A stretch of 64,000 nt of DNA from an uncultured virus (IMG/VR IMGVR_UViG_3300025913_000028) (Duplodnaviria > Heunggongvirae > Uroviricota > Caudoviricetes). Numbering within the stretch: the first letter of the stretch is position 1; every line of letters begins with the position of its first letter. Location: the IMG/VR virus record IMGVR_UViG_3300025913_000028; one strand, written 5' to 3'. Position numbers and translations under genes: made by a program. The notes beneath the pieces are model-generated. The model saw nothing but the letters and a program-made list of their open reading frames with translations. It did not search any database and was not told where the DNA came from. Below are positions 5,295-61,492 of the stretch, piece after piece.

Positions 5295-6985
5295 AGCATA
5301 AGTGTATGTTCTGCACGTCACCGTGCGAGATCACGCTCGCATTCACGAGCGAAGGCTGCACGAACCCGGCATGCCGGGCGTACGCTGCGCCACCTGCACC
5401 TCCGAAAGAGGAAGCGAAGCAGGAAGAGGCGGCGTTCAAAGCGAACGTGAAGACAGAGCGGCTTTCCTCGAAGGAGCCGCACGTCTCGAACACCCCGAAG
5501 CCGGACCCGGTGAAGGAGGGGCGAGAAAGTGCCAAGCGCCCCTCCTTCATGGCCTCCCTCTACCCGAGGAGCCCGATACCGTTCGCGGACCCATTTCGCC
5601 GTGAGGTGATGGGTCAGTCCCAGGAGCCCATCCTCAAGATGGACTACGCGGAGCTGGAGTGGAGGGTGATCGCTCAGGTCGCTCTTCAGCACTACGGACA
5701 GCACGGACACTCCAGGGAGCTCACGTCCCACATGCTGGGGAAGGAGCCCCACAAGGTGAGGGCCTCGCACATGGAGCAGGTCGAACAGCATCTGGAGCGC
5801 CTTGCTGTGGCTGGCAAGATGCCCACGGATGTGATGCAGCTCCTCATCTTGCTCGATCTCATCAGCGAGGAGTCGATCAACATCGCCAAGGCCAAGGGCA
5901 TCGACCCCAGCATGATCGAGCCGTGGATGAGGAAGCGGCAGGACCCGAGGTCCGTAAGACAACGCCGTCTCTCCCCGAGGCAGCTCGAAGAGCTTCGGCA
6001 GGTGTGGTCTCTGCCCGTGGTTTCTTCTGACCTCCCCTACAGCAGGACATGGGCGGAAGAGCGCGACTTCCACACGCAGATCGCGTCACAGATCTTCAAG
6101 GTCCCTCCGTCGCAGATCACGAAAGAACAGCGCGATGCTGCGAAGTCGACGGAGCTCTCTGCCCTCTACGGAGGTCTGAGGATCATCAGCGGCCTCGATG
6201 CAGGACTGGCGAACTATGCGAAGGCAGATGCAGAGGTCACTCAAGGTCTCTTCTCGGCTCAGCGGCTCGCGGAAGCTCGCATCGCTGGCTTGGAAAAGGA
6301 GATCCCCCTCCGGCACGGTGAATGCCTCACCAACCGACGGGACTGCGGATGCAAGGCGTACGTCACTCGTGTGGGTGTCGACGGAGGGTATCGAAGCGAG
6401 CCTGCCATCCTGTCTCGCAGAGATGCGAAGGAGTGCGAGCACTGTGCGGGCTCGTTGCTCGAAGGCACCAAGGCGGCCTTGCTGAAGTGGTGGAAGAGGG
6501 ACTCGGAATCCCTGGAGGCTTTCTACTCCTCCCCGCAGATGTACAAGGTCCACCGCCTTCGCTGGGCGCAGACGCTGCGTGTCACCGATCGGAAGCCTGG
6601 GATCTCGAAGAACAGCTTGGGGGTGAAGCTGCTTGGAGTCATGTCCCTCGTCGATGTTCCGAAGCGCTTCAACGGCCTGACGGCGGTCTACGAGTACGTC
6701 TCCATCGAGTACCCGACCACTGGGCGCTTCCGCTTCACCATCTCCAAGGGTCCGGGTCCTCAGAACGAACGAGGGGTCGTGCTGGATCGTACAGCTTGGG
6801 GCCTCACCATCCGCTTCCTGCGCCTCGATGCGGAAAGCAAGATGAACATCGCCAACATCCACTGCCCCGCCATCCTCAGTGAGGTCCACAAGGACCTCGA
6901 CATGAATCGCCCAGTTCGCACGCCCTCCGAGGCGGAGATGGCGATGTTCGCGATGATGCGTGGGCCGCACGACAAGAAGGAGTGA
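5291..6985 (+). CDS. Mosaic protein containing fragments of a family A DNA polymerase
   Basis: MDYAELEWRVIA (motif A-like) and DFHTQIASQIF..ITKEQRDAAK..ALYG (motif B-like); no motif C. Confidence 0.6.
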   Translation: MKHKCMFCTSPCEITLAFTSEGCTNPACRAYAAPPAPPKEEAKQEEAAFKANVKTERLSSKEPHVSNTPKPDPVKEGRESAKRPSFMASLYPRSPIPFADPFRREVMGQSQEPILKMDYAELEWRVIAQVALQHYGQHGHSRELTSHMLGKEPHKVRASHMEQVEQHLERLAVAGKMPTDVMQLLILLDLISEESINIAKAKGIDPSMIEPWMRKRQDPRSVRQRRLSPRQLEELRQVWSLPVVSSDLPYSRTWAEERDFHTQIASQIFKVPPSQITKEQRDAAKSTELSALYGGLRIISGLDAGLANYAKADAEVTQGLFSAQRLAEARIAGLEKEIPLRHGECLTNRRDCGCKAYVTRVGVDGGYRSEPAILSRRDAKECEHCAGSLLEGTKAALLKWWKRDSESLEAFYSSPQMYKVHRLRWAQTLRVTDRKPGISKNSLGVKLLGVMSLVDVPKRFNGLTAVYEYVSIEYPTTGRFRFTISKGPGPQNERGVVLDRTAWGLTIRFLRLDAESKMNIANIHCPAILSEVHKDLDMNRPVRTPSEAEMAMFAMMRGPHDKKE

Positions 6986-6987
6986 AC

Positions 6988-7566
6988 ATGAACAAGATCT
7001 TCGAGGCCGCGAAGTTCGCGGCCAGTCGCCATGCCAAGCAGGCGGGTCGGGGGCCGAAGAACGAGCCCTACGTCACACACTGCTTCGACGTCGCGCAGCG
7101 TCTCGTCGCTGCTGGTGTCGACGACCCTTTCACTCTCGTTGGGGCCATCCTCCACGACACCCTGGAGGACACGGAGACGACGTACGAGGAGCTCCACGAG
7201 AAGTTCGGCTACTCGGCCGACCTCGCTCGTGACCTGACGCTTCCTCTCGACTGCCGAGATGGCAACCACGAGAAGAAGACGGCTCACCAGGTCATGATGA
7301 TGAAGATGATGGACATCGGGGGTGTCCTCATCAAGATCGCGGACAAGACCTCGAACGTGAACGACATGGTCGACAACCCTCCGAAGTGGGGGCTGCGTGC
7401 CGTTCGTGGCTACTGCGACTCGGCGGAGGCAGTCGTCGATGCGGGGAAGGATGCACGCCAGCGTCTTCGTCTCACCGAGGAGCAGGAGCGCAGCCTCCAA
7501 ACCCTCATCATCCGCTTCTACGAAGCCTACCAGAAGGCGGCGAAGCACTACGGATGGGCACCGTGA
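6988..7566 (+). CDS. Mesh1/SAH-like HD-domain (p)ppGpp hydrolase
   Basis: AAKFAASRH..Q, EPYVTH, AILHDTLEDT, LIKIADKTSN. Confidence 0.9.
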   Translation: MNKIFEAAKFAASRHAKQAGRGPKNEPYVTHCFDVAQRLVAAGVDDPFTLVGAILHDTLEDTETTYEELHEKFGYSADLARDLTLPLDCRDGNHEKKTAHQVMMMKMMDIGGVLIKIADKTSNVNDMVDNPPKWGLRAVRGYCDSAEAVVDAGKDARQRLRLTEEQERSLQTLIIRFYEAYQKAAKHYGWAP

Positions 7567-22006: not shown

Positions 22007-23209
22007 ATGAACATCGACAAGAACAAGCTCCTCAAGCGGTCGACCCTGCTCGACATCATCTTCAGCGCCCTCATGGCGGAGATCGGCTCCAAGAAGGTCG
22101 AGCAGATCGTCGAGTACGCCCTGACCGGCCTCAATCCCGAGCAGCCGGTGGTCACTGCTCTCTCGGAGCTGATGGAGCTGACGCACGAGCAGCTCGCGAT
22201 TCTCAGCGAGGGTGAGCACGAGCGTGGTGGGCATGGCATGCGCCTCATCGGGAATGTCATCACGGCACACCGCGAGGGGGACAAGCTCACCTCCATGGAC
22301 GCAGTGGACGAGCACGACATGCTGCTCACCGCCCTCGCGTTCCGGGTCCCCCAGCACGTGATTCGTGAAGTGTTCGACGACATCGAGCAGCATGTCTCGG
22401 TCAAGGCCGGCGTCGCCGTCCAGGAGCTCTTCCAGGAGCTTCGGGAGAAGAAGGTCTCGAAGCTGGAGATGCTGCGGCTGTTCAAGGTGGGTCTGGATCC
22501 GAGCCTTCAGGGCCCGACCTCGATCGAGCAGCAGGCCAGTCGTCGAAGTGGTGGCGCCCGAGGCAGCAGCATCGTCTCGGTGCTGATGTCTCTGCTCGGT
22601 GCCGGGGGTGCTTCTCTCGGTGGTCGTGGCGTTCGCGTCATGAGCCTCGACGACCTGTTCGGCGATGGTCCCGGGATCGACTTCGATGACCTGCTGAGCA
22701 GCGCCGAGGGAAGGAAGTCTGCGGCGAGCGAGCCCGATGGCTCGATCACGGTGGGCGACCTCTGGCGTGAGGAGAACCAGACGTTCGGGCTGATCACGAG
22801 CGTCGAGGACTTCCTGCGCCGGAACCGTCCTCGTACCGATGCTGTCGACATGGACGGCGTTCGGAAGCTCCCGCTCCGGCTGTTCAAGGACATGAAGGAC
22901 CTGGATGCCCGCTACCGCGAGGTGTTCGGGTACGACGGCGAGCTCGCGGAGATGCTGGTGGTGATCGTCAACCTCATCCACGCAGACCTCGTGCAGCGCT
23001 ACAAGACGGTCGACGAGGCGATCGCGACCGTCCTCGCGAAGCACCCCGAGCGTGCCGAGGGCGAGCTCAAGGCGGCGGAGCGGCAGAAGGTCGTCGACGC
23101 TGCTGTGGCGAAGGGTGAGCCGACGCCTGACTGTGGCTGCAAGGCGTGCAACGCCAAGCGGCGGGCACGTGGGGAAGCCCCGGTCATCGAGCGTTCGACG
23201 CAGCTCTGA
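22007..23209 (+). CDS. Hypothetical protein
   Basis: 400-aa ORF with SD; C-terminal CxCxxC. Confidence 0.85.
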   Translation: MNIDKNKLLKRSTLLDIIFSALMAEIGSKKVEQIVEYALTGLNPEQPVVTALSELMELTHEQLAILSEGEHERGGHGMRLIGNVITAHREGDKLTSMDAVDEHDMLLTALAFRVPQHVIREVFDDIEQHVSVKAGVAVQELFQELREKKVSKLEMLRLFKVGLDPSLQGPTSIEQQASRRSGGARGSSIVSVLMSLLGAGGASLGGRGVRVMSLDDLFGDGPGIDFDDLLSSAEGRKSAASEPDGSITVGDLWREENQTFGLITSVEDFLRRNRPRTDAVDMDGVRKLPLRLFKDMKDLDARYREVFGYDGELAEMLVVIVNLIHADLVQRYKTVDEAIATVLAKHPERAEGELKAAERQKVVDAAVAKGEPTPDCGCKACNAKRRARGEAPVIERSTQL

Positions 23210-23216
23210 CATCGAT

Positions 23217-23260
23217 GTGTGCGGCAGTTCGGTGCCTTCGGGTATCGGACTGCCGCACGC
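23217..23260 (+). other. 20-bp intergenic RNA hairpin with UUCG loop
   Basis: GTGTGCGGCAGTTCGGTGCC-TTCG-GGTATCGGACTGCCGCACGC; 4 G.U pairs; no U tract. Confidence 0.85.
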
Positions 23261-23283
23261 CTCAACATGAAAAGGAAATCAAC

Positions 23284-25389
23284 ATGACCCTCTTTCTCTC
23301 TTTCTATCGCACGGTCGCCGAGTCCTTCCAGAAGATGGTGAAGGACAACACCAACATCTTCGTCGCCGACATGGACGGTGACGCCCTCTGGGCGCTGTAC
23401 CTGGCCTCCTTCCCTCCGGGCACCGATCCCATCTTCAAGACGCGCACCGAGCACGACTGCTCGTGCTGCAAGCAGTTCATCCGCCGCGCAGGATGCGCGG
23501 TCACCATCTCGGACGGGAGGGTGACCACCGTCTGGGACAAGGCTGTCGAGCAGGCGTCGGCGGAGCCGTATGGCATCGTCGCAGCAGCACTTCAGAAGGC
23601 TCTGCGCGGCGTGGGCATCCGCGACCTCTTCCGTGTCGGAAAGAGCGAGACGCAGTTCGGTGCGATGCAGACGCGTCAGCTCGACAAGGCAACGGAGAAG
23701 GTTCTGGTCTGGAACCACTTCCACACCGGGGAGATTCCGCGTGGCCTTCGCTCGGCGACCCCGGACGCTGATCGTGGCAACTACCGCACGACGGTCCAGG
23801 TCTTCGAGCGTGGGCTTGTCGAGCTGACTCCCGATGCGGTCGATACCGTCTTGTCCTTGATCGAGGCGAAGAGCTTGTACCGCGGTGACGAGCACAAGCG
23901 TGCCGTCATCGAGTTCAAGAAGATGCAGGGCGAGTACCTCGGGAAGAAGGCGACGTGGCCTTTCAACACCGAGCGCTCCCTCTTCGTGTGGGCGAACGCC
24001 AACAGCCCTGCGGCCCGATTCCGCAACACCGTCATCGGTACGCTCGTCCAGGACCTCTCCGAAGGTCAGGAGCTCGAACGTGCGGTGAAGAGCTTCGAGT
24101 CGAAGGTGGCTCCGCAGAACTACAAGCGGACGACCGCCCTCATCACGCCCGGCATGGTGAAGAAGGCGATGGAGACCATCGAGTCCTTGGGACTCGAACC
24201 GGCTCTCGAACGTCGGTTCGCCGTCATGGCCGACGTGTCGGTGAACGACGTGAAGTGGGTCGACGGTGCTGCACGCTCGCTCATGAAGGGCGGGATCGGT
24301 GACGTCCTCATGCAGCATGCTGCGGCCTCGACTCGATCTTCGGCGAAGGACGAGGACCGTGCCGAAGCCATCTCGCTCGACGACTTCATGACGGAGATCG
24401 TCCCCAAGGCGCAGGCCATGGAGATGTTCTTCTCGGGGAAGCATCTCGGGAACCTGATGGCTCTGACGGCGCCGGTGCATCCGGAGCCGAAGCAGCTCTT
24501 CAAGTGGAACAACGACTTCGCGTGGTCCTACGGCGGCAACGTCGCGGACTCCATCAAGGAGCGCGTGAAGAAGGCGGGCGGCAAGATCAACGGTGTCCTC
24601 CGCATCTCGCTGTCGTGGTTCAACTACGACGATCTCGATCTTCATGTTCACGAGCCCAAGGGCTCCGGACGAGCTCGTGGATCTCTCGGTCTGCCGGGAC
24701 AGCACATCCACTTCCGCAACAAGGTCGGCTGGACCGGAGGCACCCTCGACGTCGACATGAACGCCGGGCACGGTGCGACGCGTGAGGCTGTCGAGAACGT
24801 GGTGTGGTCCGTCAAGCCGCCGGACGGCCCGTACCAGATCATCGTGAACAACTTCGCCCAGCGCGAGACCAGCAACCCTGGGTTCGTCATCGAGACGGAG
24901 TGTGAGGGCAAGATCTCGCACTACTCGTACAACAAGCAGGTCCGGAACCAGCAGGACATCGTCGTGGCGACGCTGCACATGAAGAACGGCGCCATCGAGC
25001 GCGTCGAGGCAGGAGATCCCGGCATCACCTCGACCAACATCTCGCAGGAGAAGTGGGGACTCACCACGGAGCGCTACGTCAAGGTCAACACGGTGATGCT
25101 CAGCCCGAACTACTGGGGCGACAACGCCGTGGGGAACAAGCACACGTTCTTCGTCTTGGAGGGGGCGAAGAGCGACGAGGACATGCGCGGGTTCTACAAC
25201 GAGTTCCTCCACTCGCGTCTCGAAGAGCACCGGAAGGTGTTCGAGGTCATCGGGGACAAGACCAAGTGCCGCCCCACGGAAGGGCACCTGGCCGGTCTGG
25301 GCTTCTCCTCCACGAAGCCGGATGAAGTCCTCGTCCGCGTCCAGCAGGGCAAGAAGCAGCGCATCTTCAACATCTACATCGGTGTCTGA
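23284..25389 (+). CDS. Large phage protein with a YfaP/DUF2135-like domain
   Basis: HDCSCCKQFIR; RISLSW..DDLDLHVHEP; LDVDMN; VENV. Confidence 0.75.
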   Translation: MTLFLSFYRTVAESFQKMVKDNTNIFVADMDGDALWALYLASFPPGTDPIFKTRTEHDCSCCKQFIRRAGCAVTISDGRVTTVWDKAVEQASAEPYGIVAAALQKALRGVGIRDLFRVGKSETQFGAMQTRQLDKATEKVLVWNHFHTGEIPRGLRSATPDADRGNYRTTVQVFERGLVELTPDAVDTVLSLIEAKSLYRGDEHKRAVIEFKKMQGEYLGKKATWPFNTERSLFVWANANSPAARFRNTVIGTLVQDLSEGQELERAVKSFESKVAPQNYKRTTALITPGMVKKAMETIESLGLEPALERRFAVMADVSVNDVKWVDGAARSLMKGGIGDVLMQHAAASTRSSAKDEDRAEAISLDDFMTEIVPKAQAMEMFFSGKHLGNLMALTAPVHPEPKQLFKWNNDFAWSYGGNVADSIKERVKKAGGKINGVLRISLSWFNYDDLDLHVHEPKGSGRARGSLGLPGQHIHFRNKVGWTGGTLDVDMNAGHGATREAVENVVWSVKPPDGPYQIIVNNFAQRETSNPGFVIETECEGKISHYSYNKQVRNQQDIVVATLHMKNGAIERVEAGDPGITSTNISQEKWGLTTERYVKVNTVMLSPNYWGDNAVGNKHTFFVLEGAKSDEDMRGFYNEFLHSRLEEHRKVFEVIGDKTKCRPTEGHLAGLGFSSTKPDEVLVRVQQGKKQRIFNIYIGV

Positions 25390-25421: not shown

Positions 25422-25835
25422 ATGTCCGAAAACATCAGCCTCTTCGAGTCCGCCACCCGCAAGAAGTTCCGCTTCACGTCCCCGCGTGGCGAGCTCACCG
25501 TCGAGCAGCTTTGGGAGCTCCCGCTGCTCTCGTCCGATGGCCTCAACCTCGACGCCATCGCGAAGACCGTCAACAAGGACCTCAAGGCGGCGACCGAGGA
25601 GAGCTTCGTGGCGACGGAGCGGAGCCCGTCCCATGGAGCCATCGAGGCGAAGCTCAACGTCATCAAGCGCATCATCGAGGTCAAGCTCAACGAGCAGGCC
25701 GAGGCGAAGAAGCGCGCGGAGACCAAGGCCAAGCGGGAGAAGATCATCGCGGCCCTCGCCGACAAGCAGGAGGTCAAGCTCACGAAAATGTCGGAGAAGC
25801 AGCTCCTCGCCGAGCTCGAAGCGCTCGACGACTGA
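25422..25835 (+). CDS. Coiled-coil phage protein
   Basis: FESATRKKFRF..RGELTVEQLWELPL. Confidence 0.8.
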   Translation: MSENISLFESATRKKFRFTSPRGELTVEQLWELPLLSSDGLNLDAIAKTVNKDLKAATEESFVATERSPSHGAIEAKLNVIKRIIEVKLNEQAEAKKRAETKAKREKIIAALADKQEVKLTKMSEKQLLAELEALDD

Positions 25836-26136: not shown

Positions 26137-26164
26137 AAGACATGAACTTCCAGTGGAGAACAAG

Positions 26165-27358
26165 ATGAAGTATACCCGGGCACCGCTCTACAAAGAGACC
26201 AGCACTGGAGCAATCCAGAAGTGGTGGATGGAGCAGGATGGGGCGAAGTATCGCTCCCATAGCGGTCAGATCGAAGGGAAGATCACGACGTCTGAATGGA
26301 CGATCGCTCAGCCGAAGAACGTGGGGCGCTCGAACGCCACCACCGGCGAGCAGCAAGCTTCCGCGGAGATCGACTCCGAGTACGAGCTGAAGGTGAAGAA
26401 GGGCTATCGCGCCACGCCGACCGAGGCGAAGGAGTCGGAGCGCTTCCAGTGCATGCTGGCCGAGCACTACAACCAGAAGGCCAAGGAGCCGGATGCTTCG
26501 TACGCGAAGAGGATGGCCAAGATCTTCACCCCCGACGGCAGAGTGATCGGGGACGCCCTCTACTTGCAGCCGAAGCTGGACGGCATCCGCTGCATCGCGA
26601 ACAAAGATGGCCTGTGGTCGAGGGAGGGGAACCCCATCCTCGCTGTTCCGCACGTCTTCGAGAGCATCAAGCACATCTTCAAGGCGAGGCCGAGCATCAT
26701 CCTCGACGGCGAGCTCTACAACCACGAGCTGAAGTACGACTTCAACAAGATCGTGTCGCTCGTCAAGAAGCAGAAGCCGACTGTCGAGGACCTCAAGCTC
26801 TCAGCGGAGATGGTGCAGTACTGGGTGTACGACTGCTTGATCGAGGATCGGCAGGCCAACTTCATGAAGCGCTACGAGCAGCTCATCCTGATGGAGAACG
26901 TGGTGACGGGCACCCGCAGCAGGAAGGCGTTCGTGAGGGTGGTGACGTACCCGGCGTTCTTTCGCGAAGAGGTCGATGGCTTCTATGAGGTCTTCCTCGA
27001 AGAGGGCTACGAAGGTGGCATGGTTCGGAGGAACGTCCCGTACGAGAACAAGCGGACCCAGGCCCTGCTGAAGCGCAAGGAGAAGCTGGACGCCGAGTTC
27101 AAGATCATCGCCTTCGAGGAGGGTGTCGGCAACGCCTCGGGGATGGCGAAGATCGCTCACATGGAGATCATCATCGACGGCAAGAGGGATGCCTTCAAGG
27201 CCGACATCTGTGGAACTCGCGAGGAGTGCCGGGAGTATCTGAAGCACGCCTCGAAGTATGAGGGCAAGGAGGCCACCATCGAGTTCCAGAACTACACCCC
27301 CGATGGCAAGCCCCGGTTCCCGAAGCTGAAGGTTGCGCATCTGACGAAGAGGTGGTGA
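26165..27358 (+). CDS. lig: ATP-dependent DNA ligase
   Basis: QPKLDGIRC (KxDG), LDGELY, GYEGGMVR, LLKRK, PRFP; start at 26153 or 26165. Confidence 0.95.
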   Translation: MKYTRAPLYKETSTGAIQKWWMEQDGAKYRSHSGQIEGKITTSEWTIAQPKNVGRSNATTGEQQASAEIDSEYELKVKKGYRATPTEAKESERFQCMLAEHYNQKAKEPDASYAKRMAKIFTPDGRVIGDALYLQPKLDGIRCIANKDGLWSREGNPILAVPHVFESIKHIFKARPSIILDGELYNHELKYDFNKIVSLVKKQKPTVEDLKLSAEMVQYWVYDCLIEDRQANFMKRYEQLILMENVVTGTRSRKAFVRVVTYPAFFREEVDGFYEVFLEEGYEGGMVRRNVPYENKRTQALLKRKEKLDAEFKIIAFEEGVGNASGMAKIAHMEIIIDGKRDAFKADICGTREECREYLKHASKYEGKEATIEFQNYTPDGKPRFPKLKVAHLTKRW

Positions 27359-27789
27359 TGACGAAGCTAGGCGCCAAGAAGAGGCGTGAGAACAACACCT
27401 GGACACTCAAGCCGCTCGAACGTGAGGAGGGGCAGACCATCTGCTTCACGGGGCCGAGCGGCATGATGGCCACAGGAGGCAGTCGGAAGGTCATCGACGA
27501 GCGCGAGTACAGCGAAGAGGAAGTGAAAATCGCTTGCGAGTGGACGCTGGTCTTCATGTTGCTGTTTCACGACCGCAACAGCTCTCGCTGGGCAATCAAG
27601 TGCATGGAGCTCTCGTGGGAGTACCCACAGGGCTCATACCGAAGCATCTTCTGGTGGTCGGCTCGCACCCTCTGCAACGAGCGAGGGCATGACCCCTTCA
27701 CCCTCGAAGACTTCCGCCAGTACATGGCGAACAAGACCCTCGACTTCGAGCCCACGGGCTGGATCAGGAAGGATGGACCAACATGGTGA
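27358..27789 (+). CDS. Hypothetical protein
   Basis: TGATG overlap. Confidence 0.7.
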   Translation: MTKLGAKKRRENNTWTLKPLEREEGQTICFTGPSGMMATGGSRKVIDEREYSEEEVKIACEWTLVFMLLFHDRNSSRWAIKCMELSWEYPQGSYRSIFWWSARTLCNERGHDPFTLEDFRQYMANKTLDFEPTGWIRKDGPTW

Positions 27790-28073
27790 ACACGAAGAAG
27801 ATGGGTGGCACTCAGGCCGCGTACATCGAGAAGATTTACGAGGTCGTCTGCCGTCAGCTCGATGTCGAGCGCGAGAAGGTCACGGCCGCATCGAAGATCG
27901 TCGATGACCTCGGGGCAGACGACCTTGCCTTGATCGAGATCATCCTCGACTTCGAGGAGCAGTTCGAGATGGACATCCCTGATGCCGAGCTCTTCTCTGC
28001 GGGCGAGACGACCCAGGAGACGATGCAGGACGTCATCAACTACCTGCTCACGCGGGTCGAGTTCACGGAGTAG
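27783..28073 (+). CDS. Acyl carrier protein-like protein lacking the attachment Ser
   Basis: QLDVEREKVT..IVDDLGADDL.LIEIIL.FEEQFEMDIPD..TMQDVINYL; DSL replaced by DDL. Confidence 0.85.
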   Translation: MVNTKKMGGTQAAYIEKIYEVVCRQLDVEREKVTAASKIVDDLGADDLALIEIILDFEEQFEMDIPDAELFSAGETTQETMQDVINYLLTRVEFTE

Positions 28074-28820
28074 ATGATGTCTTCCGGTGACGCACTCGGC
28101 GATCGCATGAAGATGTACGAGGGTCAGCCCCGCTCCTCGCTGGTGCCGCGGATGCCGACCCTCGTTCGTATCGATGGCAAGGCCTTCCACAGTTACACGC
28201 GTGGGCTGCCCTCCTTCGATCCCAACCTCCTGGAGGCGATGAACCAGACCGCCATCACGCTCTGCAAGGAGCTCCAGACCGTTCAGTTCGCGTTCGTCCA
28301 GAGCGACGAGATCTCGTTGCTCCTGCATCCCTACAAGAAGTACGGGACGCAGGCGTGGTTCGACAACTCCATCCAGAAGATGGTGAGCGTGTCGGCCTCC
28401 ATCGCAGCCGCGACCTTCACGCTCCTGTCCCCAACGCTGTGGGGTCCGGGCATCTACAAGCCCGCGTACTTCGACAGCCGTGTGTGGGTGGTGCCGGAGG
28501 TCGAGGTCGTCAACTACTTCCTGTGGCGTCAGCAGGACTGGACGCGCAACTCCGTTCAGATGATGGCGAGGCAGCACTACTCGCAGAAGCAGACCCACAA
28601 GAAGAACAACTCCGAGCTCCAGGAGATGATTCACCAAGCCGGTGAGAACTGGAACGACCTCCCCACGCATCTGAAGCGGGGTCGCTGCATCATCAAGGAG
28701 ACGTACGAGGTCGGGCTGGCTCAGCGTTCGCGCTGGGTGGTCGACAACAACCCGCCGATCTTCTCGGCGGACCGCAACTACATCGAGAAGTACCTCGCTG
28801 TCGTGGAAGAGGGTGTCTGA
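28074..28820 (+). CDS. thg1: tRNA(His) guanylyltransferase Thg1-like protein
   Basis: LGDRMKMYE, VRIDGKAFH, VQSDEISLL, FDSRV, NYFLWRQQD..RNS. Confidence 0.93.
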   Translation: MMSSGDALGDRMKMYEGQPRSSLVPRMPTLVRIDGKAFHSYTRGLPSFDPNLLEAMNQTAITLCKELQTVQFAFVQSDEISLLLHPYKKYGTQAWFDNSIQKMVSVSASIAAATFTLLSPTLWGPGIYKPAYFDSRVWVVPEVEVVNYFLWRQQDWTRNSVQMMARQHYSQKQTHKKNNSELQEMIHQAGENWNDLPTHLKRGRCIIKETYEVGLAQRSRWVVDNNPPIFSADRNYIEKYLAVVEEGV

Positions 28821-58133: not shown

Positions 58134-58526
58134 ATGAACACGTTCCAGCTCCACGATGGCCGCACGGTGCGCGTCATCGGCAACAACATCCTGGTCGAGC
58201 GGGTCAAGCTCCCCGAGACCTACAAGAACACCAAGATCATCATCGACCGTCAGAAGGAGGACGCCACCGCGATCGGCATCATCCGGGCGGTGGGTACGCT
58301 CGCAGTCGTGAAGCCTGGCGATGGTCCCCAGCGCATGCCCCTCTTCGGTCTGGAGCCGGGGATGAAGTGCGCCTTCCTCTGGTTCTACGCGGAGCGGCAC
58401 ACGAACCTCCAGATCCAGGAGCGGCTCGGCCAGAGCCTCATCGTCCTGAAGTGGGAGGACATCTCCTTCGTCTGGCCGGGCAACGAAGAGCACGACGTCT
58501 CGGGCATCTGCTCGATGGGCGCCTGA
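58134..58526 (+). CDS. GroES-like co-chaperonin
   Basis: RVIGNNILVE..KIII..GIIRAVG..LEPG..IVLKWEDI. Confidence 0.75.
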   Translation: MNTFQLHDGRTVRVIGNNILVERVKLPETYKNTKIIIDRQKEDATAIGIIRAVGTLAVVKPGDGPQRMPLFGLEPGMKCAFLWFYAERHTNLQIQERLGQSLIVLKWEDISFVWPGNEEHDVSGICSMGA

Positions 58527-58553
58527 CCCTGCTACGCTAGGACTGGAGCCGCC

Positions 58554-58856
58554 ATGGACTTGAACATCGTCGCCTACCTCTCAGCTCTCGTGCTTCTCGC
58601 CGCCGTCGGTGCGTGGATGCACGTGCGCCTCTCCGCCATCAGGGTGAAGAGCAGGACCGTCGACTTCAACTTCGAGCGGCTTCAGTTCGCGCGGAAGCAG
58701 CACGACTTCGCGGAGCAGCAACACAAGGACATGATCACGATGCGCCGCGAGCACATGCGCACGATGGGGAATCTCCCGAGCCCAATGATGGGTCCGGGAG
58801 GTCCTCTCGGTGGTCCGCCTCGCCGGCGTGGCCCGGGAGAGGACATGGACTCATGA
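58554..58856 (+). CDS. Small membrane protein
   Basis: N-terminal TM; extended -10-like TGcTACGCT upstream. Confidence 0.7.
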   Translation: MDLNIVAYLSALVLLAAVGAWMHVRLSAIRVKSRTVDFNFERLQFARKQHDFAEQQHKDMITMRREHMRTMGNLPSPMMGPGGPLGGPPRRRGPGEDMDS

Positions 58857-59083
58857 TCACCTTTCGCATCGTGACGCCTCGCGTCACCAAGGACATCGTC
58901 TTCGAGGATCACGCCAAGGGGAACGAGTGGCTGAAGAAGCTCTACTCGGTCATCGGGCGGGCGAAGGAGTTCCGCATCCACGACGTCGACAAGAGCATGC
59001 ACACCGTGCACATCGACATGCCCATCAAGGACCTCTCCGACAAGGGGATCTCCTTCTTCGGGGCCACCACGGTGGCTCGCTGA
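58853..59083 (+). CDS. Small hypothetical protein
   Basis: ATGA overlap. Confidence 0.7.
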   Translation: MITFRIVTPRVTKDIVFEDHAKGNEWLKKLYSVIGRAKEFRIHDVDKSMHTVHIDMPIKDLSDKGISFFGATTVAR

Positions 59084-59101
59084 TTCTTTGCCCCAAGGAA
59101 C

Positions 59102-59404
59102 ATGAACATGACGAAAGCAGAGCAGCTCAGTGATGACTTCCGTGCGTCGTGGCGTGAGCTCGCCAAGACGATGTATGAAGCCTACGGCGACAGCGTCGAC
59201 TGGAAGGCCGTCAGCGGGCATCCGATGCCGAAGTTCGAGGACGTCGGCGTCCGTGTCGAAGGTGCGTGGTGCGTCGCGGCCAGTGCTGCGGTCGGGGCGC
59301 TCACCAAGATGAACCCGGCTGGGGCGGTGGAGGAGGCTCGTGCTCTCGGGCGCGAGATGGCCGACAGCTTCCTGGCGCGGATGAACGAGGCTACGAAGGA
59401 CTGA
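59102..59404 (+). CDS. Hypothetical phage protein
   Basis: YEAY..SV.WKAV.G..MP.F. Confidence 0.75.
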   Translation: MNMTKAEQLSDDFRASWRELAKTMYEAYGDSVDWKAVSGHPMPKFEDVGVRVEGAWCVAASAAVGALTKMNPAGAVEEARALGREMADSFLARMNEATKD

Positions 59405-59784
59405 TGGAACAGCTTCTCGCTCACGTGTTCGGCGACTACATCCTCCAGAGCGACTGGATGGCGCTGAACAAACGCAAGTCGTACATGGTCGCGTTCATCC
59501 ACGCCGTCACGTACTCGCTGCCCTTCGTGCTGCTGCACCCGTCGTTCGTCGCATGGTTCGTCATCATGCAGACGCACGCTCTGATCGACCATCTCGCGGT
59601 GGCTCGCTACGTCTGCTTCGCGAAGAACTTCCTGGCCCCTCCGAGTGCGTGGCCGGTGTGGGCGAAGACGAACGCGACCGGGTACGATGAAGAGAAGCCG
59701 ACGTGGATGAGCACGTGGCTTTTCATCATCGCCGACAACGCGCTACACCTCGCCATCAACTACGCAGCCCTTCGCTGGCTGTAA
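59404..59784 (+). CDS. DUF3307-like membrane protein
   Basis: LAHVFGDYILQSDWMA..K; H..ID; DN.LH. Confidence 0.8.
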   Translation: MEQLLAHVFGDYILQSDWMALNKRKSYMVAFIHAVTYSLPFVLLHPSFVAWFVIMQTHALIDHLAVARYVCFAKNFLAPPSAWPVWAKTNATGYDEEKPTWMSTWLFIIADNALHLAINYAALRWL

Positions 59785-59794
59785 GGAGGATCCC

Positions 59795-60556
59795 GTGAGC
59801 AAGAGCATCCATCGCAAGTACACCTGGCGCCCCGACGTCCCCGATCACCGGGATCAGTACTTCATCGACGGCGCGGTCGCACTGCCCCCGGCGGTCGACC
59901 TCCGCAGCGAGTGCCCGCCGGTCTACGACCAGGGACAGCTCGGAAGCTGCACCGGCAACGCGATCGCGGCGGCCCTCGCGTTCGCCGACCACAAGGAGCA
60001 CCTCGGGCTCTTCTTCACACCGTCGCGGCTCTTCATCTACTACAACGAGCGCAGCATGGAGGGCACGGTCGCCTCCGACGCTGGCGCTCAGATCCGGGAC
60101 GGCATCAAGAGCGTCGTGAAGCTCGGGGCGTGCGCGGAGACGACGTGGCCGTACCGCATCACGAAGTTCAAGCTGAAGCCCACGGCGAAGGCGTACAAGG
60201 AAGCCGCCCTCCATCAGGCGCTCTCATACAAGCGCATCGTCAGCACCAGCCTCAGCGCGATGAAGAGCTGCCTCGCGGCGGGCTTCCCGTTCGTCTTCGG
60301 CTTCTCCGTCTACGAGAGCTTCGAGAGCGCCGAGGTCGCCAAGACCGGCGTGCTCAACCTTCCGGCGGTCGGCGAGCAGATGCTGGGCGGTCATGCCGTC
60401 CTGTGTGTCGGCTACGACGACAGCACCGAGCGCTTCATCGTCCGCAACTCGTGGGGCTCGGCGTGGGGCCAGGCCGGCTACTTCACGATCCCGTACGGGT
60501 ATCTCACCAACCCGAACCTCGCGGACGACTTCTGGACCGTCCGCACCGTGGAGTGA
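59795..60556 (+). CDS. Papain-like C1 cysteine peptidase
   Basis: DQGQLGSCTGNA, SRLFIYY, GGHAV..VGY, RNSWG..WG..GY. Confidence 0.93.
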   Translation: MSKSIHRKYTWRPDVPDHRDQYFIDGAVALPPAVDLRSECPPVYDQGQLGSCTGNAIAAALAFADHKEHLGLFFTPSRLFIYYNERSMEGTVASDAGAQIRDGIKSVVKLGACAETTWPYRITKFKLKPTAKAYKEAALHQALSYKRIVSTSLSAMKSCLAAGFPFVFGFSVYESFESAEVAKTGVLNLPAVGEQMLGGHAVLCVGYDDSTERFIVRNSWGSAWGQAGYFTIPYGYLTNPNLADDFWTVRTVE

Positions 60557-60558
60557 AC

Positions 60559-60795
60559 ATGAACACGTTCACGAAGGGTGACATGGCGATCCTCAAGAGC
60601 GGCGGGCCGCGGATGACGGTTCGTCGTGTCGAGGCCGACATGATCACCTGCACGTGGTTCGAGACGAAGCCAGGTGGCGTGGACATGTTCACGCTCGGCG
60701 CGGCGTACGGGGAGCTCCGCAGTGCGGATTTCCACAGCGCCATGCTGGTCGCCATTCCGCCCAAGACCGAAGGGGGCGAACATGAAGTGGGCTGA
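60559..60795 (+). CDS. YodC/DUF2158-family protein
   Basis: F.KGD...LKSGGPRMTV..C.WF. Confidence 0.85.
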   Translation: MNTFTKGDMAILKSGGPRMTVRRVEADMITCTWFETKPGGVDMFTLGAAYGELRSADFHSAMLVAIPPKTEGGEHEVG

Positions 60796-61492
60796 CAAGC
60801 CGACGGCACATCACACGCACAGCGTCTTCAAGCTTCCCAGCGAGGAGGTGGTGTGGCGTCCGCCCACCGACGAGATCGGCCAGGACGGCTACCCGCGGAT
60901 CTTCCCGTGGAGGACGTGCAGCTACTGCGGGAGTATCCATCCGGAGGATCTCGTCGAGCTCGCGAAGACGATCCCGTTCTGCGACACCTTCGAGTCGTAC
61001 GAGTTCAAGACCGGCAAGCCCCACATGGAGCTCGCCGACATGAAGTACGGCTTCCCGCACAAGATCTACGTCGACACGCAGATCACGCTCAAGCCCGACG
61101 TGGAGTTCAAGCACGGGTCGCGCACCGAGAACGGGGTTCAGATCCCGCTCATGGGCAAGGGCTACAAGCCCTTCATCAAGTTCTACACCGTTCACACGAA
61201 CGATGAAGGGATCGACGACGAAGCTTTCGCCGCGATCGCGAAGGTGATGCACGACCACGCCGGCGTCATCCTCGAACGAGACGACAAGGGCGTGAAGTGG
61301 AGAGGCAGGCCCCGCATGATGAAGAAGAACGCCGACAACACCCCGACCTTCAGCCCCGGCGAGCGCGTGAAGGTCGCTGGCCAGGAAGGCAAGGTCACGG
61401 GCACCGCCGAGGACGGCCGCGTCCAGATCACCTTCGACGACAGCAACGTCCCGGCGCAGGTGATCGAGCCCGACAAGGTCGAGCGGACGTGA
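60782..61492 (+). CDS. Hypothetical phage protein (CSYCGSIHP) with a C-terminal SH3-like domain
   Basis: ORF motifs. Confidence 0.75.
   Translation: MKWADKPTAHHTHSVFKLPSEEVVWRPPTDEIGQDGYPRIFPWRTCSYCGSIHPEDLVELAKTIPFCDTFESYEFKTGKPHMELADMKYGFPHKIYVDTQITLKPDVEFKHGSRTENGVQIPLMGKGYKPFIKFYTVHTNDEGIDDEAFAAIAKVMHDHAGVILERDDKGVKWRGRPRMMKKNADNTPTFSPGERVKVAGQEGKVTGTAEDGRVQITFDDSNVPAQVIEPDKVERT

Follow-up and report, generated by a model that had tools for sequence, protein, structure and literature searches.

What use would a phage have for an acyl carrier protein (ACP) that has lost the serine to which the phosphopantetheine group is attached? The question is raised by a small gene in the 64,000-nucleotide stretch of DNA analysed here (the window), which comes from an uncultured virus of the Caudoviricetes (IMG/VR record IMGVR_UViG_3300025913_000028). 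Few proteins of a bacterium are as highly connected as ACP, its partners including FAS enzymes, lipid A and phospholipid acyltransferases, AcpS, IscS, and MukB. A reading of the DNA letters alone (the sequence-only reading) had taken the gene for an ACP homologue with Asp in place of Ser, and had suggested that its product might be an unmodifiable decoy for proteins that bind ACP.

An ACP-like gene with aspartate at the phosphopantetheine site

The gene (27783..28073, plus strand) encodes a protein of 96 amino acids with a net charge of -14 and a pI of 4.1. The first 7 nt of the gene, from its ATG at 27783, run into the end of the upstream ORF, whose stop is TGA, and the Shine-Dalgarno-like sequence AGGAAGGA (27766..27773, plus strand; read from the sequence) lies 9 nt before the ATG; its own stop, TAG, directly abuts the ATG of the downstream gene at 28074. 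GC content by codon position (GC3 0.88, GC2 0.28) is like that of the neighbouring genes. Where ACPs read DLGADSL, the protein reads DLGADDL, and Asp47 stands at the start of helix II, where the phosphopantetheine Ser would be, as seen in the sequence and in the clade alignment described below. Direct reading of its codon, GAC at 27921..27923 (plus strand), bore out the earlier statement that it is two substitutions from any Ser codon, the nearest being AGC and TCC.

Membership of the ACP family was confirmed by a match to PF00550 (35 bits against a gathering score of 20.8, E 1.8e-8 in Pfam), by matches to PHROG 5934 and 4154, both of which are named "acyl carrier protein", and by the AcpP fold of the predicted structure. 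The AlphaFold2 model, a check that had been proposed along with the sequence-only reading, was built from a 65-row alignment and has the four-helix ACP fold (mean pLDDT 77.5; helices at residues 11-26, 47-60, 67-70, and 81-91); its best Foldseek matches in the PDB were all ACPs (AcpP structures), with TM-target values of 0.80-0.88. Helix II of the model begins at residue 47, and the Asp thus occupies the place that Ser has in ACPs. The protein nevertheless scores below every curated NCBIfam cut-off for the housekeeping AcpP equivalogs (TIGR00517 and NF002148-51), at 55.3 versus 70.45 for TIGR00517 and 65.2 versus 71 for the best of them, NF002148; and the Ser of the D-S-L motif at the start of helix II, which in a holo-ACP receives 4'-phosphopantetheine, is replaced by Asp47.

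Conservation of Asp47

A word-indexed search returned three relatives, at 75, 68, and 55% identity, each with DLGADDL. A clade profile search then separated nine proteins scoring 126-175 bits from everything else, which scored at most 80 bits. We define the clade as these nine (P0001-4, P0007, P0157, and P0158-160), to which P0161 was added as an intermediate form. Pairwise identity among the nine is 44-80% (mean 57%), and 21 of the 96 columns are invariant across the clade, D47 being one of them. The sequence-only reading had asked for just such an alignment of homologues, and had named as the outcome against it that close relatives retain Ser while this copy is under relaxed selection. What was found is Asp at the site in 10/10 proteins (the nine plus P0161) and a dN/dS of 0.22 at a dS of 0.87, the latter from a single DNA pair, the window gene and that of a sister phage (L001/G001). 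Between these two the Asp47 codon itself differs synonymously, the window having GAC and the sister phage GAT.

The ORFs are intact in all nine members, the contigs of which include ones of 195,355, 195,774, 196,746, 141,375, 138,331, 82,481, and 69,174 bp. Because its members lie on large contigs, the clade looks like a lineage of ~195-kb phages. On these comparisons, Asp47 is judged to be neither a sequencing error nor a product of decay, and the Asp-ACP to be under purifying selection, with the caveat that the dN/dS value comes from one pair.

Gene content and the carrier function

Known PPTases transfer phosphopantetheine onto the Ser hydroxyl, and an ACP without that Ser cannot be phosphopantetheinylated at the site. 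The same point in the sequence-only reading therefore stands by established chemistry, and no other conserved Ser column exists in the clade alignment (10 members); the sole column made up of Ser or Thr throughout, T80, is also present in the two cellular AcpPs that were aligned. No PF01648 PPTase was found in the complete 195,355-bp phage genome (G000), which has a single PP-binding gene, nor in Ralstonia phage RP13, the sister phage, or two further viral records. Among 195 ORFs scanned against Pfam, comprising 12 + 69 inside the window and 114 outside it (the latter being those of at least 80 amino acids that a codon-composition filter retained), none matched a FAS, PKS, NRPS, or lipid family; genes for replication and nucleotide functions are abundant in the genome. 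The cognate PPTase and acyl-handling enzymes that would be expected alongside a holo-ACP are thus missing from the phage genome as scanned. Lacking the Ser, and encoded by a phage in which neither a PPTase nor acyl-handling enzymes were found, the protein is, from sequence, very unlikely to be a carrier.

Relationship to the AcpP of Myxococcota

All nine of the organism-named matches among the best 120 profile matches were to Myxococcota (9/9), the names being Sandaracinus, Sandaracinaceae, Polyangiales, and "Myxococcota bacterium". A scan of prokaryotes, using one genome per species and the patterns FE[EK]QFE or VDDLGADD, yielded 45 confirmed loci, of which 37 were in Myxococcota lineages, five in "Deltaproteobacteria", and one each in a Bacteroidetes MAG, a Pseudomonas, and an Actinomycetota MAG; since the scan was driven by motifs, it shows the Polyangia AcpP signature and is not an unbiased taxonomy. 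Ser is retained in 43 of the 45 (38 by pattern and five as read from tails), including all 42 from Myxococcota and "Deltaproteobacteria". The two that do not have it are the Pseudomonas locus, with Glu, and the Actinomycetota locus, with Asp.

The phage protein and the AcpP of Polyangia/Sandaracinaceae have in common the four-helix fold, the DLGAD loop, and an acidic helix II. They also share the helix II/III motif, which in Polyangia reads DSLAIVE…FEEQFE-DIPD and in the phage retains FEEQFE-DIPD, with Asp for Ser. The phage stretch DDLGADDLALIEIILDFEEQFEMDIPDAE matches the Polyangia AcpP core, even to the unusual Ala at the position of E. coli AcpP Asp38; the canonical D38 of the recognition helix is therefore Ala in both. 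Identity is ~44% overall, and 20 of the 30 residues from 40 to 69 match. Features found only on the phage side are the Asp in place of Ser, the N-terminal KKMGGT, a five-residue insertion, and the RVEFE tail; in addition, unlike a bacterial housekeeping acpP, the phage gene has no fab neighbours and its product falls below the AcpP equivalog cut-offs. From these sequence likenesses, the gene was probably acquired from a Polyangia-like host, with the alterations following, and the phage itself may be assigned, provisionally, to a Polyangia-type host. No host was taken from isolate-phage relatives because the PolA-like ORF of the phage (5291-6985, 564 amino acids) gave no tblastn match in a collection of 50,697 phage records.

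The serine-less Pseudomonas sp. ORF reads DLGADEL (L133, 4001-4201) and that of the Actinomycetota MAG reads DLGADDM (L135, 4001-4225). Two longer serine-less ORFs with DLGADDL or DLGADDV were seen on cellular or unclassified contigs (L085, 386-865; L086, 1642-2550).

Recognition region and clade-specific additions

The DLGAD loop, helix II, and the start of helix III form the surface that ACP partners recognise. In the phage protein, this region (residues 42-67; 27906..27983, plus strand; delimited on the clade alignment) holds 15 of the 21 invariant columns, and at 14 of the 15 the residue is that of Polyangia AcpP, the one exception being the Ser-to-Asp change itself. Were the protein an ACP freed from all of its partners, drift in residues 42-67 would be expected. 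However, no part of any ACP is better conserved than this region, which is important for folding as well, and its conservation is therefore no proof of partner binding.

Three elements set the clade apart. The N-terminal extension KKMGGT (27783..27812, plus strand) was delimited by alignment and is predicted by DSSP to include a short strand at residues 5-7 (pLDDT ~61). An insertion of five residues between helices III and IV, F71-E75 (27993..28007, plus strand; from alignments), is missing from cellular AcpP, and its F71 and G74 are invariant in the clade. The C-terminal R-[VI]-E-F tail (RVEFE; 28053..28070, plus strand) has a predicted strand at residues 92-94, according to the model and the alignments, and within it E93 and F94 are invariant. 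In the AlphaFold2 model these elements are paired as short strands, at lower, only moderate confidence. A decoy is a plausible reading of the way in which host-like conservation is concentrated in the recognition region, whereas the conserved additions could mean a new, non-host partner.

The intermediate form, P0161, has 88 amino acids, Asp at the site, and KKFPG and RVECAS at its termini, and is without the five-residue insertion. Its sequence suggests either that the insertion came after the change from Ser to Asp or that P0161 once had the insertion and lost it.

Genomic neighbourhood

Gene context could be seen for two of the nine clade members, the window phage and the sister phage (G001), the 195,774-bp genome of which has terminal repeats and is rated complete. 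The gene order of the latter is a large phrog_1735 protein, a phrog_2018 protein, a ligase, a homologue of the ORF upstream of the ACP gene (ORF145), and the Asp-ACP, with extra ORFs inserted on both sides of the Asp-ACP. In the window, the gene lies between ORF145 and a Thg1-like 3'-5' nucleotidyltransferase (28074..28820, plus strand; PF04446 at 91 bits, phrog_4717), and an ATP-dependent DNA ligase (26153..27358, plus strand; PF01068, phrog_114) is nearby. The sequence-only reading had placed the gene in a "ligase/Thg1 unit". That unit is not a functional one because the complete sister phage, otherwise syntenic, keeps the Asp-ACP with no Thg1 anywhere in its genome and has other genes beside the Asp-ACP; a functional link to Thg1 was accordingly rejected. 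The same reading had drawn attention to an alarmone hydrolase. A SpoT-type HD_4 hydrolase domain does exist (6982-7566; HD_4 at 47.7 bits), directly after the PolA-like ORF, and it is its connection to the ACP that is weak, the two genes lying 20 kb apart.

ORF145 (27352..27789, plus strand; from the ORF list) is an ORFan of 145 amino acids, whose last 7 nt are shared with the start of the ACP gene. A homologue in the sister phage, at 79% identity, is the only one it has; ORF145 belongs to no Pfam, PHROG, NCBIfam, or PADLOC family, and there was no match in the phage database and no usable one in the ESM Atlas. Prediction of a complex from the ACP clade alignment and the ORF145 alignment (score 0.00, mark 0.32) is evidence neither way.

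The large phrog_1735 protein and its phrog_2018 partner (window 23146-25389 and 25422-25835, assigned by PHROG) are encoded 2.4 kb upstream of the ACP gene, and 555 phage records give tblastn matches to these proteins. An annotated ACP of 163 amino acids in Pseudomonas phage pf16 (L088, 7963-8454 and 9001-10998) lies 0.5 kb upstream of a phrog_1735 homologue; this ACP keeps Ser and has a C-terminal extension. Out to 8 kb, no ACP-like ORF accompanies the phrog_1735 homologue of Caulobacter phage Karma, nor was a phrog_1735 protein found around the RP13 ACP. A link between the ACP and the phrog_1735 protein is thus a weak lead.

ACP-like proteins of other viruses

Viral contigs were scanned with the pattern [LIV]V[DG]DLGAD plus a second pattern for helices II/III, leaving the site residue free. 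The site residue of the 73 loci obtained was Ser in 43, Tyr in 11, Glu in seven, Pro in six, Asp in three, and Val in three; 30/73 viral ACP-like loci are thus without Ser. Counted as 61 distinct sequences, the distribution is Ser 37, Tyr 8, Pro 6, Glu 5, Val 3, and Asp 2. A scan of metagenomes used a pattern in which Asp was fixed (DLGADD), and its matches give no frequency.

Grouping of the non-Ser loci at 55% identity or more gave the window clade, two further groups (B and C), and a singleton with Glu (L079). Group B consists of 19 loci of low GC content, encoding proteins of ~71 amino acids (e.g., L053, 5001-5216; also L037, L039, L043, L046-48, L050-55, L061, L065, L068-70, and L078), and its site residue is Glu in six, Pro in six, Val in three, Ser in two, and Asp in two; because it varies among close relatives, the identity of the residue looks unconstrained. 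The flanking genes are for a virion structural protein (phrog_11591) and a tail sheath or sheath stabiliser (phrog_11196/227). Group C consists of 11 loci, all with Tyr (DLGADYL), which encode proteins of 82-87 amino acids on contigs of ~60% GC, at least one of them classed as provirus (e.g., L062, 4992-5240; also L057, L063-67, and L071-76); even without Ser, it scores above the TIGR00517 cut-off (73.5 versus 70.45). Like the window clade, groups B and C belong to the ACP fold family and are without Ser, but there is no link to that clade at 55% identity or more. The three also differ at the site, which is fixed as Asp in the window clade, variable in group B, and Tyr in group C, and group B is located in a tail/virion module.

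Three isolated phages, RP13, Bajun (Brevundimonas), and pf16, keep Ser in their ACPs. These are small ACP-fold genes of large phages (PHROG 5934/4154) and are functionally uncharacterised; the RP13 ACP is 39% identical to the window protein, and none of the three has the insertion and tails of the clade. One paper describes ACPs as rarely found in phage genomes, and one as detected in virions (PMC7760394).

A putative binder of ACP partners

The reading that we favour, with a probability of roughly 0.45, is that the phage protein behaves like apo-ACP and binds host ACP-partner proteins, one or several. A phage would have captured a host housekeeping AcpP, those of Polyangia-type Myxococcota being the most similar, and converted it to a permanently cofactor-free protein in which the phosphopantetheine Ser has given way to Asp47 and the site retains a side chain that caps the helix and bears a negative charge. 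Asp is a good helix N-cap, and holo-ACP carries a negative phosphodiester at the Ser site; these two properties may account for the fixation of Asp rather than of some other residue. Host-like character would have been maintained on the acidic surface of helices II/III, which partners recognise, and the N-terminal KKMGGT, the five-residue loop insertion, and the C-terminal RVEFE would have been gained. We infer that this cofactor-free protein, unable to shuttle acyl groups, would bind host ACP partners during infection, and that the bound partners, whichever they are, would be inhibited or redirected to the benefit of the phage. A more specific proposal can be made tentatively: in this clade of ~195-kb phages, AcpP may have become a phosphomimetic (Ser to Asp), non-acylatable decoy effector acting on a specific ACP-dependent host machine (acyltransferase/lipid synthesis or an ACP-binding SMC-type complex) and so taking over or disarming the cell, and many "phage ACPs" (30/73 loci) may be non-carrier binders.

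The mACP of Plasmodium falciparum is eukaryotic and organellar, has a known partner and no viral relation, and its replacement residue is Phe. Like the phage protein it is a conserved ACP homologue unable to carry phosphopantetheine; it is described as essential and as working by binding, and stabilising, Isd11-Nfs1 (PMC8547962). The apo-ACP of E. coli, which also has no prosthetic group, binds partners and blocks lipid synthesis, inhibiting glycerol-3-phosphate acyltransferase and halting growth (PMC3896788). That effect is an artefact of overexpressing the cell's own protein, whereas the cofactor-free state of the phage protein is fixed genetically, in a virus. The ATPase of MukB is stimulated equally by apo- and holo-AcpP (PMC8602292).

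The main rival to a host-partner binder, possible in our view if rather doubtful, is that the ACP fold has been co-opted to serve, structurally or as an accessory subunit, some protein or complex that the phage itself encodes, and has no role with host ACP partners, ORF145 or the phrog_1735/phrog_2018 pair being the candidates to which it would belong. Conservation of the N-terminal, loop, and C-terminal elements (F71, G74, E93, and F94 invariant) and their pairing as strands in the model are in its favour, but the recognition region is host-like instead of drifting. The overlap of the ACP start with the ORF145 stop, and the retention of ORF145 in the sister phage, point to ORF145, but a 186-amino acid ORF separates its homologue from the ACP gene there. 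For the phrog_1735/phrog_2018 pair, the spacings of 0.5 kb in pf16 and 2.4 kb in the window are suggestive, but the pf16 ACP keeps Ser and Karma offers no counterpart. The detection of an ACP in virions of Erwinia jumbo phages (PMC7760394) also counts for the subunit reading.

Other alternatives fare worse. A generic acidic mimic of DNA or another polyanion, aimed at restriction or DNA-binding defence proteins and using the ACP fold as a mere scaffold, would suit a protein of such low pI encoded among early or replication-type genes. We judge it unlikely, as cellular AcpPs are about as acidic (P0190 has a net charge of -11), all of the strong fold matches are ACPs and none is a known DNA mimic, and no resemblance in fold or family to the Ocr/ArdA type was found; nor was there a match in PADLOC, the library of which holds defence proteins and no anti-defence proteins. 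It is highly improbable that the protein is still a carrier, bearing a group on another residue or through other chemistry on the Asp. An unrecognised modifying enzyme might, formally, be present among the many ORFans, but the PPTases that are known use the Ser hydroxyl, the phage has none of them, partner genes of the FAS, PKS, or NRPS kind were not found either, no Ser is conserved elsewhere, and T80 is shared with cellular AcpPs. We give hardly any credence to a decaying or neutral relic of a captured acpP: the defining Ser has indeed been lost and the score is below the AcpP equivalog cut-offs, but the low dN/dS, the invariance of the Asp and 20 other columns, nine intact ORFs on contigs of up to 196,746 bp, and normal codon statistics all speak against loss of function.

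A literature search, with many subscription papers outside its scope, found no serine-less or decoy ACP described in phage. ACP-fold binders without phosphopantetheine are already known; what would be new is that such a protein, here a putative binder, is encoded by a virus and derived from a host AcpP. A viral ACP that is under selection and locked in the cofactor-free state would serve as a probe of which ACP interaction a phage must control. If the host-partner reading is true, the protein would represent a new class of host-takeover or counter-defence protein, and ACP mimicry would be an unrecognised, recurrent viral strategy. Phage genes annotated as "acyl carrier protein" or "auxiliary metabolic gene" often cannot be carriers.

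Other features of the phage genome

Several other genes were noted. The PolA-like ORF has only a short match to PF00476 (residues 244-295), and a second, full PolA is encoded elsewhere in the phage genome (L136, 6823-8820). A papain-family cysteine protease (PF00112; 59795-60556) adjoins a DUF3307 protein (59266-59784) in the window, and RP13 has a DUF3307 gene ~2.5 kb upstream of its ACP. An ORF of 2028 amino acids on the minus strand (G000:C1 ~175836-181919; L142, 13836-19919) contains Rpb2_6 and Rpb1_1/2/5 and is thus a fused RNA polymerase beta/beta-prime of the multisubunit type. Also on the minus strand, a histidine kinase (HisKA + HATPase_c) is followed by two response-regulator receiver proteins (G000:C1 ~58403-61085; L139, 4403-7085).
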